A stretch of 42,424 nt of DNA from a virus (Duplodnaviria > Heunggongvirae > Uroviricota > Caudoviricetes). The notes under the pieces were generated by a model. That model made no database searches. It was not told the origin of the DNA and worked only from the letters and a program-made list of their open reading frames with translations. The translations under genes and the position numbers were made by a program. Below are positions 24,787 to 30,818 of the stretch, one piece after another; position 1 is the first letter of the stretch, and every line of letters starts with the position of its first letter. The stretch is taken from IMG/VR virus record IMGVR_UViG_2563366953_000006, positions 1-42,424 of that record. One strand, written 5' to 3'.

Positions 24787-25545
24787 TTATTTTTTCTTCT
24801 TATTTAACTTATCTAAATTGACGGGATCTTTCCCTGTGGCAGCTAAACACCAAAAAGAATAACTCTTTTGCATGACATAGGTTCTAATTCTCTCTAATGT
24901 TTCATTATATTTTTTCTCAACAACCTGTATCGCATGTTCAAATAAATTAATCATATCAACATGCTCGTCCTCGACACCAATCATGCTCAGTTGTTTTCTA
25001 TCTGTCACTGCTTGATAAAATGTTTTCCCATTTTTCCTTATTAGTAACAATGAAGTTTCTGCTGACTCATAGTCTTGGTTGCCGCTATGTGCTGCAAAAT
25101 TATGCCTGTAGTTAATAATACAGTCATGCAACCCAAAATATTCAGAATCAAGCCAATCACGCTCCATCTTTAACTTTCTCCCTTTAGCTTCAGAGAAAGC
25201 TTTACCATAAAACGTTAGGCTTGCCACAAATAACGCTCTAATTTCACTTGATAAATCTAGATCAAGTATATTCCCGTATAACTTGCCATCTGTCCTTAAT
25301 TCGTTTCTCCCTGCCAGTTCATTAGCTATTTGGTACCACTCTTTAGCACTTTTTAAGTCCCTATGAATTAGGGACAGTGAAGATGCTCTATCGGCAATAC
25401 GCCCACTCAATTTTATGCGATCTACAATTTCATTATTGAATGTATAAACCGCTTTAAATTCCCCCGTTTCGGAATCAATATAATATTCAACATCTAACCC
25501 TTCATATGATTCACACCCGGGACCTTCTAATTTTTTTCTTTTCAT
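24787..25545 (-). CDS. AT-rich orphan gene, hypothetical 252-aa protein (moron; candidate accessory/defence function)
   Basis: Single ORF sitting between Rz and the HNH/terminase block; composition visibly more AT-rich than the flanking phage genes; no recognisable family from sequence. Confidence 0.6.
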   Translation of the reverse strand: MKRKKLEGPGCESYEGLDVEYYIDSETGEFKAVYTFNNEIVDRIKLSGRIADRASSLSLIHRDLKSAKEWYQIANELAGRNELRTDGKLYGNILDLDLSSEIRALFVASLTFYGKAFSEAKGRKLKMERDWLDSEYFGLHDCIINYRHNFAAHSGNQDYESAETSLLLIRKNGKTFYQAVTDRKQLSMIGVEDEHVDMINLFEHAIQVVEKKYNETLERIRTYVMQKSYSFWCLAATGKDPVNLDKLNKKKK

Positions 25546-26091: not shown

Positions 26092-26566
26092 ATAGCTGAA
26101 TTTCTCTGACCGTTCCGCCCGATTCTTTGAATTTTTCAATCAGGCTGTCAACCTTATGTTCGAACTGACCATAACCAGCGCCCGGCAATGACGCCCAGAT
26201 ATTGCTGCAACGATCAATAGCCTGACGGATATCGCCGCGATCAATCATCGGTAAAGCACCACGCTCTTTAATCTGCTGCAATGCCACAGCATCCTGGCTT
26301 TTTGGAGAGAAGTCTTTCAGCCCAAGCTGCTTACGGTAAGCATCCCACCAGCGTGAAAGAAGCTGATAACGTCCTGCGGCTGTTGATTTAAGTTTCGGGT
26401 TTAGCGTGACAAGTTTGCGAGGGTGATCGGAGTAATCAGTGAACAGTTCACCTCCGACAATAACGTCATAACCGTGGTTACGTGTCGGTTGTCGCCCGTT
26501 ATCCGTTCCTTCTGACCATGCCACCATATCGAGGAAAGCTTTACGCTGGGAATTTAGTACCTGCAT
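26084..26566 (-). CDS. Endolysin, lambda R-like lytic transglycosylase
   Basis: [132 protein letters not shown] is near-identical to lambda R as recalled. Confidence 0.92.
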
Positions 26567-26569
26567 AAA

Positions 26570-26896
26570 TTACTCCTTAGAGCCACCAAACTTATTACCG
26601 ATTACTCTCATTGCAGCCCCACGAATAGCATCGACCCCGATCAGCCCAACGCCGCCACCAATGGCAACAGAAAGAGATTTAGGCCATCCGACATACTCAA
26701 GAGCGGATGCAAAAGTCAGCGTCAGAGCACCACAGAGCAAAATCTCGAGCGTTTTTCGTTTCCAGCCACCACCACCGCCAAAATAGGCAATGCGCAAGCC
26801 AGCCATAACGATCGACATAATCACTGCGCCCAGCGGTGTGTCTCCACGCCACCAGCTCTGGACCAACTCCAGCCAGGTATTTGGGTTATGAGGCAT
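26570..26896 (-). CDS. Holin
   Basis: 108-aa membrane protein with hydrophobic segments and a charged C-terminus, directly upstream of the endolysin. Confidence 0.75.
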   Translation of the reverse strand: MPHNPNTWLELVQSWWRGDTPLGAVIMSIVMAGLRIAYFGGGGGWKRKTLEILLCGALTLTFASALEYVGWPKSLSVAIGGGVGLIGVDAIRGAAMRVIGNKFGGSKE

Positions 26897-27039
26897 TTGT
26901 AGTTATCTCTCACCTCGCTGATACAGCAGGTGCAAATTGAGGGAACATCATGTACCGCAAATCAGAAGCGGAAACATCAAAGAAGCCGAACCGATGGAGA
27001 ACTGCGGAATAGGCCAGGACCAACGAATCCCCAGCCACA

Positions 27040-27075
27040 GAAACGACAAAACCCGCTCGACGGCGGGTTTAAGCT
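27040..27075 (-). terminator. Candidate late-operon terminator (tR'-like) upstream of the holin
   Basis: Minus-strand hairpin AAACCCGCCGTCGAGCGGGTTT followed by TTTGTCGTTTCTGTGG. Confidence 0.4.
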
Positions 27076-27192
27076 GTGTGGCGAAGTAACCACTCTTAAC
27101 AGATTACAATGTTTTTTGCGGACCGCGCTAATGATTTCCTCTTTTTTTTGTTGTATTTTTCACACGGTTGCTAAAATTATTTCGGATCGATA

Positions 27193-28134
27193 ATGAGTAC
27201 AGAAAATAAGAATAAAACCAGGCGAGTGAGAGTTGGTTTTTTCACTGGTAATGGAAGCAAAAAAGATGGCACATCTGCTGCAAAACTAGCCTTTGAGCAA
27301 ATGACCACAGCAGATACTGTAACTTTTCCAATAACTTACACAACAGACACCCCAAATCGAGGGTTAAAGTTAGTTATTCTTCAAAAAGATACCACACTGC
27401 AATGTTACTTTGGTTACGTATCGTGGAGAAGGGAATGCCTACTACCGTTCATCGAGGATGCTACAGGTAGTGAGAGAACAATTCCTTTAAATGATAAAGA
27501 TTCTGTAGTTGAAAGAACATATTTTATCTATTACTACGAAACGGACTTATTAGCTATGACCCTCAACCATATAGGGCCCAAAGTAAATGATCTGGCATTC
27601 ATTTTGTATAACAAAACTGATTTAAAAAGCGTCACTTTTGAAGCCATTTGGAAACAAGAGAGCATGAAGGAACTGCTTGAGGACGGAAATATCCTACGTA
27701 GTTTCGATCTTATAGTTGCTGCTCCAAGAAACTTTAACAAAGCTAATTATAAGATTAAAAACCCTTTAGCTAATGAAATTATTGACATGGTTGTTGGTAT
27801 GGGCGGGTCGCATCTAAGATTAAATATGCGAGGTCGGATTCGCCCGAAAAAACAAGGGTTTAACTATCTAAAAACTTCTGTCACCGATGCTATTAAGGAA
27901 CTACTTGAACTTTTTCCAAAAGGTTCTGGAGGTCTAAAAATTAAAAAAATTGATGTAACAGAGCCATCCAATAGAACGCCCAAAAGTCTACTTGACCAAG
28001 TATTGGTCAGTACAAAGACAATCATTGTCAAAAGCGGTTATCCATCCGATTCTGATATCAGAACGGCGATGATATCTGCTAAAATTGATAACGCGAACTA
28101 TCTTGCACAGTATGAGCTCGCTAGCAGAGACTAA
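27193..28134 (+). CDS. Hypothetical 313-aa soluble protein, first gene of an AT-rich two-gene cassette (candidate defence/abortive-infection sensor)
   Basis: ORF on the strand opposite to all late genes, in the Q-to-lysis moron position; no Walker A motif and no recognised domain; followed 9 bp later by a 4-TM protein gene. Confidence 0.65.
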   Translation: MSTENKNKTRRVRVGFFTGNGSKKDGTSAAKLAFEQMTTADTVTFPITYTTDTPNRGLKLVILQKDTTLQCYFGYVSWRRECLLPFIEDATGSERTIPLNDKDSVVERTYFIYYYETDLLAMTLNHIGPKVNDLAFILYNKTDLKSVTFEAIWKQESMKELLEDGNILRSFDLIVAAPRNFNKANYKIKNPLANEIIDMVVGMGGSHLRLNMRGRIRPKKQGFNYLKTSVTDAIKELLELFPKGSGGLKIKKIDVTEPSNRTPKSLLDQVLVSTKTIIVKSGYPSDSDIRTAMISAKIDNANYLAQYELASRD

Positions 28135-28155
28135 TAACCAAGCATGGAGGACACA

Positions 28156-28605
28156 ATGAGAGAATTAGCCACTTTTCTCTGGAAATGCGTCCTCTGGATT
28201 CTGTTGACCTATGCAGCGACAAAACTGTTTAAACCGATGAAGCATGCTGACGTACTCACAACAGCGGGGGTGCTCTCGACTATATCAGGCATCCTGTTTG
28301 GTTTTGTTCTGGCTGCAATATCTATATTTAGTAGTGCAAACAGCGATAAGGAAGGAGCAATTAATGCCCTTAAGCAAAACAACGTGTTACCAACTCTGGT
28401 AAATAGATTACTTTCAACAGGGTTAACTCTCATCGTCGCATGTATATTTCCATTGATAGCGATGTTTCTACCTGATGATGTTATTGTTGCGGGCAAACCT
28501 ATTGATTTCCTGTTCATACTGTTAGGCTTATCCTCCCTTATAATTTCGCTATATACCTTCGGAAGGTGTTGGTTAGTGTTACGAAAAATCTTCCCCCACT
28601 TGTGA
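28156..28605 (+). CDS. Small polytopic membrane protein (4 predicted TM helices), second gene of the cassette (candidate membrane effector)
   Basis: Four hydrophobic stretches (res ~8-27, 38-62, 88-108, 120-146 of the 153-aa track ORF); start placed at MRELATF (28156), preceded by GGAGG; track start is 28144. Confidence 0.65.
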   Translation: MRELATFLWKCVLWILLTYAATKLFKPMKHADVLTTAGVLSTISGILFGFVLAAISIFSSANSDKEGAINALKQNNVLPTLVNRLLSTGLTLIVACIFPLIAMFLPDDVIVAGKPIDFLFILLGLSSLIISLYTFGRCWLVLRKIFPHL

Positions 28606-28640
28606 CAGGTTGGCCTCATATGGGGCCAACCTGTGCAACC

Positions 28641-29009
28641 CTAAGCGTCCATTTCAAGGTTAACATCCAACATTGAAAGGCAACCATCAATAAATCCTTC
28701 GGCTAGTTGTATTTCTATGCGTACCAATTTTTCATCCTTTCCACGCACCTTTGCAATCTTACGCTTGGATATTCTGTATAAATAATGTGCCACAAGCAGC
28801 GAGTGCTCATCTGGCTTTTTTTGCTTTAGACGAGCAAGACAACCTTCAATAATTAATGCATCACTATCTGAACAAGCCTGACGTGTTTTGCTTGTGTAGG
28901 GAAGAAGCCCCTTAAACCCAGCAGCTATAGGCGAATAGTCTACTCCAGAACTATCACTCGCCGCCCATGCTCCCCAACGCTCCAGAACCATCTGAATATC
29001 ACGCATCAA
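28641..29009 (-). CDS. Antitermination protein Q-like (small Q family)
   Basis: 122-aa protein at the junction of early and late regions, upstream of the lysis genes; resembles the short prophage Q family as recalled. Confidence 0.55.
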   Translation of the reverse strand: MMRDIQMVLERWGAWAASDSSGVDYSPIAAGFKGLLPYTSKTRQACSDSDALIIEGCLARLKQKKPDEHSLLVAHYLYRISKRKIAKVRGKDEKLVRIEIQLAEGFIDGCLSMLDVNLEMDA

Positions 29010-29023
29010 CTTTCTCCACCAAA

Positions 29024-30019
29024 TCAGGCCAACACCCCAATCGCCAGCGCGCGATCGATAAAACGAAATATCAGCTCCAGTTGGGAGCCATACTTCTCTT
29101 CAAATGCCACGGTATCCGCATGCAGCTCGTCGTGATGCTTTCTGCACAAAGGCAACACAAAGAGGTCATGCGCTTTTGTACCCATTCCACCCTGACCGTG
29201 ACCTATCAGGTGGTGGGGATCATCAGCAGGCTTTCCACAACATGCACACGGCTGTGTCTTAACCCAGCGCGTGTACTTTTCATTAACCCAGCGGCGGCGT
29301 TTTGGGCGTAACATAAAAGACTCCAGCGACTCCGGATCCACTTTCAGCGCCAGCACCTTTTTCGCTTTATCCTGGATAATGCTGGTGGCAGGAACCGAAG
29401 GCACAAGGTCACTTTCCCGGGTGACCGCCTGCACAACAGGCTTCGGTAATCTCAGTGCCTTACGGGCTGCACTTTCCGGTAAGGCATCCGCCAGGTCATT
29501 ACGAATCAGCCACCAGCACAGTTCCGGTATTGTCACAACGTGACTATCATCAAAACCGAGATCCCGACGCACAACAGACAACACCCAGCGGGCACAGTTA
29601 TCCGTTGCCATTGATTCCAGCCGTTCCGTGAACTGATCGCGCAGCTGGTTATCGCAGTGCCAGCACAAACGGATTGCGCCCGGAGCGTGTCGCATTGTTG
29701 TCATGTTCTCGCTGTGCCAGTCGGAATGAGGCCACTGGCAGCCTTTTTCACGAAGTAACCAGCTTTCAAGACATTCCACGCCACCAGCACGACGGATCAC
29801 TGCCTCATTGCGGAATACGGCCCGAACGGCAGGATCATCCGCCAGCGGTTGTGATGCCGCCGGAACGGCACCACTGGCGAAAGATGAATAACGTTCCGGC
29901 TCAGGCTCCAGCAGGACACGCCCCTGCATAAACAGGGGCATCAACTCTGAACCTGGCCTGAACAATACGATCCCCATACGCGGGGCAATTTCAGGGGTCA
30001 GTAGTGCTCTCACGGTCAC
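29024..30019 (-). CDS. DUF968-family prophage protein with C-terminal HNH-like Cys/His cluster
   Basis: 331 aa; C-terminus CACCGKPADDPHHLIGHGQGGMGTKAHDLFVLPLCRKHHDELH; conserved partner of Q in lambdoid prophages (family assignment from memory). Confidence 0.55.
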   Translation of the reverse strand: MTVRALLTPEIAPRMGIVLFRPGSELMPLFMQGRVLLEPEPERYSSFASGAVPAASQPLADDPAVRAVFRNEAVIRRAGGVECLESWLLREKGCQWPHSDWHSENMTTMRHAPGAIRLCWHCDNQLRDQFTERLESMATDNCARWVLSVVRRDLGFDDSHVVTIPELCWWLIRNDLADALPESAARKALRLPKPVVQAVTRESDLVPSVPATSIIQDKAKKVLALKVDPESLESFMLRPKRRRWVNEKYTRWVKTQPCACCGKPADDPHHLIGHGQGGMGTKAHDLFVLPLCRKHHDELHADTVAFEEKYGSQLELIFRFIDRALAIGVLA

Positions 30020-30020
30020 C

Positions 30021-30818
30021 TCAATGAACGGTATCGAGCAGCTTTAACAGCTCAGAGAATCGGGATTCGAAGAAATGCGGCTGCGTCTCGCGCGGATTTG
30101 CGGGACTGGTGATGTTCTTGCCGAACATGCAGCCTTTCGCTGTCAGCGACCAGAATTTTTTGATGTTGTTAATCGCGGTACGGCTGTATCGTTCGCGCTG
30201 CTCGACGATCCCCAGCTTCACCATCTGGTGATATGCCTGATTAGCCGTCAGGCGGATACCATACTGTTTCAGCAGTGCACTCAGTGACAGCGTAGGGCGA
30301 CTTGAGCCATCGTGTGCATCAGCAGGAGCATCAATGGCATAGCGCGGTGCCAGATTCGGTAAGCCAACAGCCTCCTGAAGTTTCTGACAGGCTCCAAGCA
30401 CTGAAGAGTTAGACAGATTTAACTCCCGGCGCATAAAGTCCAGCAGAATCACGCCAGCCTGCATCTTGTCAGCAGCCTGTCCGGATAATTTTTCAGGTGC
30501 GCTGGTTACCATGTCGAAAGTACGGATCACCTTCAGATGGAATGACGGGCTGATCCACATTGCATAGGCATACACCAGTTCTTTGCAGACATACGTCCCC
30601 TGGTTATTTCCACCACGAATAACGTTAACTGGCTCTATATTGACCGAGTTGCAAATCTGCAACTCGCTTATTAAACGTTCAGTTTGCTCATTGCGGAGCC
30701 AGAATGCAGGCTTATGCTTATCCAGAGAACCGGCAGCCCTGTGCAGATCGTTCAGGCTGTAACGCCCATAAGCATCACGACGAACTTCAATACCATCAAT
30801 GACCATCAGATTATTCAT
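30021..30818 (-). CDS. KilA-N domain protein (antirepressor-like)
   Basis: N-terminus MNNLMVIDGIEVRRDAYGRYSLNDLHRAAG matches the KilA-N DNA-binding domain pattern. Confidence 0.6.
   Translation of the reverse strand: MNNLMVIDGIEVRRDAYGRYSLNDLHRAAGSLDKHKPAFWLRNEQTERLISELQICNSVNIEPVNVIRGGNNQGTYVCKELVYAYAMWISPSFHLKVIRTFDMVTSAPEKLSGQAADKMQAGVILLDFMRRELNLSNSSVLGACQKLQEAVGLPNLAPRYAIDAPADAHDGSSRPTLSLSALLKQYGIRLTANQAYHQMVKLGIVEQRERYSRTAINNIKKFWSLTAKGCMFGKNITSPANPRETQPHFFESRFSELLKLLDTVH

Follow-up and report, generated by a model that had tools for sequence, protein, structure and literature searches.

A probable, highly divergent RexAB-type gene pair at the Q/late-promoter junction of a lambdoid Escherichia coli prophage

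The stretch of DNA analysed here, referred to as the window (42,424 nucleotides, IMG/VR record IMGVR_UViG_2563366953_000006), comes from a lambdoid Escherichia coli prophage whose phage genes lie on the minus strand. From high to low coordinates the gene order is DUF968, Q, cassette, holin, lysozyme, spanin, HNH and terminase. The cassette, the subject of this report, is made up of two open reading frames (ORFs) on the plus strand:

27193..28134, plus strand: ORF1, 313 amino acids (aa), a soluble, basic protein (isoelectric point 9.3) of a RexA-like, DUF6731-related family

28146..28151, plus strand: GGAGGA, Shine-Dalgarno sequence of ORF2, 4 nt 5' of the ATG at 28156

28156..28605, plus strand: ORF2, 149 aa, a four-transmembrane (four-TM) membrane protein, RexB-like and putatively a channel effector

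A first-pass annotation, made from the sequence alone, had described this cassette as a candidate undescribed abortive-infection module with the layout of RexA/RexB. Based on the profile comparisons presented here, the cassette is likely to encode a two-component system of the RexAB type that excludes phages by abortive infection, and to be a very distant homologue of lambda rexA-rexB.

The two ORFs are real genes. They lie on the plus strand as first annotated, 21 nt apart, and only the start of ORF2 had to be moved. The ATG at 28144, from which it was originally read, falls within the Shine-Dalgarno sequence of ORF2 (atGGAGGAcacaATG), and residues upstream of the methionine at 28156 are found neither in the other 32 sequences of the ORF2 alignment (A2) nor in the RefSeq annotation, so the start was placed at 28156. 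ORF1 has no hydrophobic segment (maximum KD19 0.86), while the AlphaFold2 model of ORF2 (predicted local distance difference test score 81) contains four long helices, in agreement with hydropathy; the soluble and the four-TM character assigned to the two proteins at first pass are thereby upheld. The cassette is also AT-rich as described, with a GC content of 0.377 in ORF1 and 0.413 in ORF2 against 0.502 in the whole window. Overlapping antisense ORFs, for example 28209..28619 on the minus strand, sit within the conserved ORF2 and were rejected as genes, and an Rfam scan of 26500..29100 gave no match.

Both proteins match a PHROG family of unknown function from end to end (E-values of 5e-146 for ORF1 and 2e-44 for ORF2), and length-conserved homologues of both occur across the Enterobacterales, among them Escherichia, Citrobacter, Serratia, Yersinia, Salmonella, Hafnia and Xenorhabdus. 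The whole cassette is present at an identity of at least 99% in 73 of 5426 complete E. coli genomes, where it is always annotated as two hypothetical proteins. This distribution, together with intact ORFs, lengths kept across genera and dozens of invariant residues, makes it highly improbable that the cassette is inert, decaying cargo without a current function, although no Pfam model matches ORF1 of the window.

Scans with Pfam, NCBIfam and PADLOC assigned neither ORF1 nor ORF2 to a family, in line with the first-pass statement that neither protein belongs to a named one. Kiwa and the CBASS/Pycsar TM effectors, which had been put forward for comparison, were rejected together with PDC-M53, as no PADLOC-DB v2 family was matched at E ≤ 1 by either protein. 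For ORF1, however, the wider family leads to DUF6731 (PF20505), an uncharacterised Pfam family without functional annotation that overlaps the ORF1 family. It is matched by 18 of 30 close and 77 of 89 broad (aligned) relatives; relatives that carry it are at 62% identity or less to ORF1 of the window. The window protein itself does not match PF20505 at E ≤ 1, and the family profile links it to the DUF6731 relatives with E-values down to 1e-150; ORF1 therefore probably represents a divergent branch of DUF6731 or a sister to it. The same profile identified 172 representatives among 1.84 billion proteins, all of about 285-320 aa. Literature searches on DUF6731, PF20505 and the RefSeq accessions found no paper.

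The two genes travel as a pair. In six Enterobacterales loci the ORF1 and ORF2 homologues are adjacent, and a Q gene of the PF06530 type is convergent with the pair in the five of these loci whose neighbour was scanned (L003-L007; in L008 the neighbour is truncated). Across loci the two proteins diverge in parallel, with ORF1/ORF2 identities of 62/62, 48/52 and 52/53%. Among distant DUF6731 genes, at about 20-30% identity to ORF1, all six of those looked up are followed directly downstream by an ORF homologous to ORF2 (20-102 bits); these partners have about 145-153 aa where complete, two being cut by the contig end. The pairing thus holds in 12 of 12 loci studied, at identities as low as about 20%. 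One such locus lies on a Mu-like phage contig (L041, 507..2492), where a distant DUF6731 gene and its TM partner directly follow gemA and mor on the same strand; here, the pair also adjoins a different late-gene regulator.

ORF1 was compared with RexA at the level of sequence, profile and fold. BLASTP found no significant similarity, and a narrow ORF1 profile (A1) aligned with RexA in hhalign over only 47 columns with a probability of 1.6%, so that broader profiles were needed. The broad ORF1/DUF6731 profile (A4, Neff 6) matched the RexA family with an E-value of 1.8e-4 and a probability of 48%, in a collinear alignment of 251 columns that places ORF1 13-306 on RexA 2-268. Upon addition of RexA relatives of 23-30% identity, the match reached an E-value of 1.6e-5 and a probability of 79% over 254 columns. 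None of 80 shuffles (40 full-column and 40 block) attained the real score of 36.6, the shuffle means being 14-15 and the maximum 23; the reversed alignment scored 15.5. Profile searches with A1 and A4 against PDB sequences did not retrieve RexA and returned weak eIF2-alpha noise only.

The predicted order of strands and helices in ORF1 fits RexA as well: a sheet domain at the N terminus is followed by an inserted four-strand/helix domain, and the chain returns via a broken C-terminal helix. ORF1 has the RexA-type fold, in which a dimerisation domain splits a globular one (RdgC/IML3-like). Together, these comparisons support, with moderate confidence, that ORF1 is a remote homologue of RexA detectable by profile-profile comparison. 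Its isoelectric point and fold are consistent with putative dimerisation and non-specific DNA binding, and by analogy with RexA it may act as a dimeric, non-specific DNA-binding sensor.

The structural likeness to RdgC suggests another explanation, in which ORF1 is an RdgC-like recombination-associated DNA binder and ORF2 an unrelated small membrane protein that blocks DNA entry in superinfection exclusion, belongs to an addiction module or is a lysis accessory. The resemblance to Rex would then reflect fold convergence and TM composition bias. Among the BFVD structural matches of ORF1, the best is a protein of Siphoviridae sp. ctylc9 (E 2e-14) and RdgC proteins stand at ranks 7-8. RexA outscores RdgC as a match to ORF1 (11.8 versus 6.7), and RdgC, with its ring dimer and tip domain, was not found to be the closest structural relative. 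Further evidence against this explanation comes from ORF2.

For ORF2, a RexB-family set was assembled from 16 proteins encoded by ORFs directly downstream of rexA homologues in viral contigs. In hhalign, the ORF2 family matched the RexB family with an E-value of 2.7e-5 and a probability of 74%, aligning ORF2 19-87 with RexB 19-86. The match takes in the last part of TM1, an H-x-D motif, TM2 and the central loop's short helix. The real score of 35.3 compares with a mean of 13 and a maximum of 18.5 among shuffles, and addition of the partners of the distant DUF6731 genes raised the probability to 93.7% (E 1.9e-7, 82 columns). Furthermore, the RexB hidden Markov model (HMM) scored 29.5 bits on the partner protein of one distant DUF6731 locus (L036), where '...IQKMKEYGHY...' is aligned with RexB '...KIREYGYMT...', against a maximum of 13.3 bits in about 1,800 shuffles. 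The reciprocal HMM, from the ORF2 side, gave 23.6 bits on a RexB-family member. Cross-controls between the ORF2 family and RexA and between the ORF1 family and RexB were null. When all 238 ORFs in the window were searched, the RexB HMM touched ORF2 alone, and the window proved to have no canonical rexA or rexB elsewhere. By these profile comparisons the ORF2 family is remotely homologous to RexB, a relationship below the reach of BLASTP, which showed no significant similarity.

A RexB match that outlasts composition-preserving shuffles, is positional and comes from a second protein that points independently to the same known two-gene system makes the RdgC-based explanation quite improbable. 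The layout that the first-pass annotation had noticed is therefore borne out by the profile comparison it had called for, and exceeded, given the remote homology of both partners.

Conservation within ORF2 is concentrated in its centre. In alignment A2, TM2 (AGVLSTxSGILFGFVLAAISIFSS) is near-invariant and an A-L-K in the helix of the TM2-TM3 (central) loop is invariant or nearly so. Counts of lysine plus arginine favour a cytoplasmic location for both termini and for the central loop. When the ORF2 model was searched against BFVD with Foldseek, the top match was a protein of Siphoviridae sp. ctylc9, followed by one of 165 aa from mycobacteriophage Sbash that may be gp31 (E 0.02-0.03 and TM-score 0.5 for the two). 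The best BFVD matches of ORF1 and ORF2 thus come from the same virus, ctylc9.

The position of the cassette relative to the genes and signals of the prophage is defined by the following features:

28641..29009, minus strand: Q antiterminator gene (PF06530, Pfam E 7.7e-52), right boundary, convergent with the cassette

28605..28634, no strand: perfect-stem hairpin, an inverted repeat with 15-nt arms and without a U-run

27148..27177, plus strand: candidate sigma-70 promoter of the cassette, read from the sequence as TTGTTG, an 18 nt spacer and TAAAAT, with a T-run before it

27045..27137, minus strand: conserved late-promoter block of about 95 bp, left boundary, a putative Q-binding/pR' region with a tR'-like terminator

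26570..26896, minus strand: lambda-family holin gene (PF05106, Pfam E 5.7e-25), first late gene past the promoter block

According to the lambda paradigm, Q acts at pR' just past its own gene, and transcripts end at tR' when Q is lacking. The position of the block, read by this paradigm, suggests that it is the late promoter, Q-loading and tR' region. A terminator scan places a hairpin and T-run within it, at 27070..27049. Roughly 2,460 E. coli genomes contain the block. It is near-invariant in the phages PhiR49_2, SfII and SfIV and recognisable in the Yersinia loci, and in PhiR49_2, which has no cassette, it begins directly after the Q stop codon. The cassette is thus a module of about 27138..28640 inserted between Q and the late promoter and facing away from pR'.

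This placement refines the first-pass description of genes lying antisense between Q and the lysis genes: the opposite strand and the Q and holin flanks hold, whereas the cassette is outside the late operon. It had also been assigned to the classic moron site of the Shiga toxin (stx) genes. In lambdoid phages that site is downstream of pR'/tR', and since the cassette sits at the Q/late-promoter junction, upstream of the late-promoter block, it is no part of the late transcript and does not occupy the stx position. An stx-like role inside the late transcript was rejected on the same grounds of antisense orientation and upstream position.

A segment of about 70 bp (27048..27116), which includes the terminator hairpin, is 93% identical to one in lambda-like genomes (434, ev017 and others), where it has a different map position about 2 kb from the right end of the genome. 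It may be a shared mosaic-junction or terminator element. At the other end of the cassette, ORF2 and Q have convergent stop codons separated by a 35-nt gap, which the hairpin at 28605..28634 fills. In L003, L005 and L007, hairpins without homology to it are found at the corresponding ORF2/Q position, which suggests a bidirectional transcript end; the element is probably such an end or an insulator. The sequence of the candidate cassette promoter is not conserved in divergent loci.

Comparison of related phages shows that the content of this junction varies. In SfII (L002, 2683..4297), the same junction holds, in the same orientation, the PADLOC candidate system PDC-M53A/B, a 340-aa soluble and a 194-aa four-TM protein. 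This system (Shigella phage SfII genes 50/49) shares with the cassette the junction, the antisense strand and the plan of a soluble plus a four-TM protein; no sequence relation to ORF1, ORF2, RexA or RexB was detected, and the window proteins miss the PDC-M53 models. In SfIV (L042, 2405..3827), the junction contains, likewise in antisense, an unclassified pair of a 356-aa soluble protein and a 108-aa three-TM protein, while PhiR49_2 (L043) has no cassette. The SfII and SfIV proteins were rejected as relatives of ORF1, ORF2, RexA or RexB, as single-sequence hhalign showed no such relation. Between the window and L007 (172..1571), both from E. coli prophages, DUF968 is 97.6% and Q 86.8% identical, and the cassette alleles only 48-52%. 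This indicates that, in sequence terms, the module has been replaced or diversified inside a fixed slot. Such allele divergence on a near-constant backbone would fit exchangeable defence cargo under diversifying pressure, and the Q/late-promoter junction looks like a defence hotspot.

The same comparison bears on the origin of the cassette. Its AT-richness had been taken at first pass as a sign of horizontal acquisition. However, the cassette is AT-rich in every locus and every host examined (GC 0.35-0.41) and has long been in the slot, so this composition is no evidence of recent gain.

The junction also raises the question of whether the pair mainly serves the life cycle of its own prophage, with ORF1 biasing the lysis-lysogeny or late-gene switch and ORF2 modulating proteolysis or the timing of lysis. 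The cassette stands back-to-back with the late-promoter block, and lambda RexA binds DNA and biases a bistable switch without RexB (PMC11077077). Yet near-identical backbones carry 48-52% alleles, and unrelated or no cassettes occur at the junction elsewhere, which points to accessory or defence cargo rather than a core regulator. That ORF1 is strictly paired with a homologue of RexB likewise favours a two-component function. We therefore assign the life-cycle role a low probability.

Several RexAB-like systems provide a model for how the pair might work. In the systems of lambda, Sbash, CarolAnn and Pseudomonas putida, a RexA-like cytosolic protein activates a RexB-like membrane protein, upon which membrane integrity or potential is lost and growth is arrested (PMC12894663, PMC6426596). 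By analogy with these, the cassette would have a defence function, for which we propose the following sequence of events. The pair would be expressed from its own promoter in the lysogen. When another phage infects, a phage protein or a protein-DNA intermediate would activate ORF1, which would dock on the conserved cytoplasmic TM2-TM3 loop of ORF2. ORF2 would then open as a channel, with TM2 as the pore-lining helix, and the ensuing drop in membrane potential and ATP would arrest the infection. The near-invariant TM2, the invariant A-L-K of the loop and the finding that, in Sbash gp31, the cytoplasmic central loop is essential (PMC6426596) all fit this activation scheme.

Several results weigh against a RexAB-type assignment. 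The Pfam models of RexA (PF15969) and RexB (PF15968) and the RexA/RexB models of PADLOC miss both proteins at E ≤ 1. As these Pfam and PADLOC models do recognise lambda RexA (E 1e-97 and 9e-110) and lambda RexB (E 9e-92 and 9e-61), the null result is a true miss by existing models. HMM-to-sequence scores between the ORF1/DUF6731 family and the RexA family do not exceed 13 bits, and the hhalign probabilities on the RexA side are all below 80%. The structural matches of ORF2 are weak (best E 0.02), as expected of a four-helix bundle, and lambda RexB is absent from its list of BFVD matches. The cassette is not in the immunity region by the repressor, where lambda rexAB and most Rex-like systems sit, and its candidate promoter is a weak consensus match below the scan threshold. 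Finally, homology leaves the effector partner unfixed, because the roles are reversed in one Rex-like pair, gp30/gp31 of mycobacteriophage Butters (PMC12894663).

This last point invites a reversed arrangement for the cassette, in which the cytosolic ORF1 is the toxic effector and ORF2 merely sequesters it until infection; no computed result assigns the effector. The most conserved part of ORF2 is nevertheless TM2, with about 20 near-invariant residues, together with the central loop, a pattern more in keeping with a pore-lining helix than with a passive anchor. Moreover, five RexAB-like systems had been described as of January 2026, and in four of them the membrane protein is the effector (PMC12894663). 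We regard the reversed arrangement as improbable and retain a RexAB-type system with ORF2 as the likely effector.

With regard to novelty, the first-pass term 'undescribed' stands insofar as DUF6731 has no literature that we found, and fails insofar as the cassette belongs to the RexAB-type kind. Because that kind is already known, the cassette is less novel than was implied. What is new here is a very divergent, unannotated RexAB branch in a new genomic position, and not a new kind of system.

A more far-reaching proposal can be made as one joint claim. In this lambdoid lineage, the junction would be a dedicated, hitherto overlooked hotspot at which interchangeable cassettes of a soluble sensor and a small multi-TM effector stand back-to-back with pR', filled by the DUF6731 pair in the window, by PDC-M53 in SfII and by the unclassified pair of SfIV. 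DUF6731 with its partner would form a large, unannotated branch of the Rex superfamily. The few residues that this branch has in common with RexA/RexB, in the HxD that precedes TM2, in the helix of the central loop and in RexA's GP..DL segment, would single out the mechanistic core of Rex, a problem now 70 years old. Under the hotspot part of this claim, RNA polymerase loaded with Q at pR' might silence the cassette during lytic growth of the prophage and so spare it self-abortion. Taken as a whole, we consider this claim speculative and rather doubtful.

Further observations concern the prophage and its relatives. A plasmid record (L045, NZ_CP104632.1, pHNAH212872-2, 100,861 bp, annotated as a plasmid) carries the same prophage segment from terminase to a PerC-family gene, with the cassette and the 252-aa gene described below; either a phage-plasmid or integration of the prophage into a plasmid could explain this. 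In NZ_CP083886.1 (strain NDM2, hit H39), an IS2 element splits the match to the cassette region in two. The KilA-N gene of the window (30021..30818, minus strand) is intact with 265 aa. In the CP081192 prophage, which matches the window at 100% identity over the cassette region, the counterpart of this gene (L001, 9022..9819) is a pseudogene by annotation, with an internal stop. A second AT-rich gene (24787..25545, minus strand, GC 0.32-0.39), which encodes 252 aa and is flanked by the spanin gene and the HNH/terminase genes, matches PHROG 8440, of unknown function; in CP081192, RefSeq annotates it in a shorter form of 229 aa. For this gene, which may be another moron or defence candidate, Pfam, PADLOC and NCBIfam gave no meaningful match (those in NCBIfam being weak and far below the cut-off), and no sequence relative was found in the PDB.

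The cassette provides a link from RexA and RexB to the uncharacterised DUF6731 and to a four-TM family without a name. It shows that, where Pfam and PADLOC are silent, there are Rex-type pairs in E. coli, Yersinia, Serratia, Citrobacter and Salmonella as well as in metagenomic phages, and that such systems are not necessarily tied to an immunity operon. The Q/late-promoter junction is a place to seek more defence cargo. In addition, the pair offers a highly divergent homologue native to E. coli for comparative mutagenesis of Rex.

Lambda RexA/RexB is among the closest known systems. In both it and the cassette, the genes are co-oriented and prophage-encoded, a basic, soluble protein of about 280-310 aa comes first and a four-TM protein of about 145-150 aa is encoded directly downstream, and the alignment of RexB with ORF2 runs from the last part of TM1 over TM2 to the central loop helix. 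RexA, the structure of which is PDB 8TWQ, is shorter than ORF1 by about 35 residues. Lambda rexAB lies downstream of cI in the immunity operon, whereas the cassette would be its own transcription unit, not co-regulated with the repressor. RexABpp of P. putida prophage P1 (PP_5643/PP_5644), compared here by description, belongs to another host and lineage and lies a few genes from a CI-like repressor (PMC12894663). The actinophage pairs (Sbash gp30/gp31, CarolAnn gp44/gp43 and Butters gp30/gp31) combine a soluble RexA-like with a four-TM RexB-like protein in hosts of the Actinobacteria. Sbash gp30 is tied to lambda RexA by a DUF4747 motif (PMC6426596), whereas the ORF1 family overlaps DUF6731 instead.

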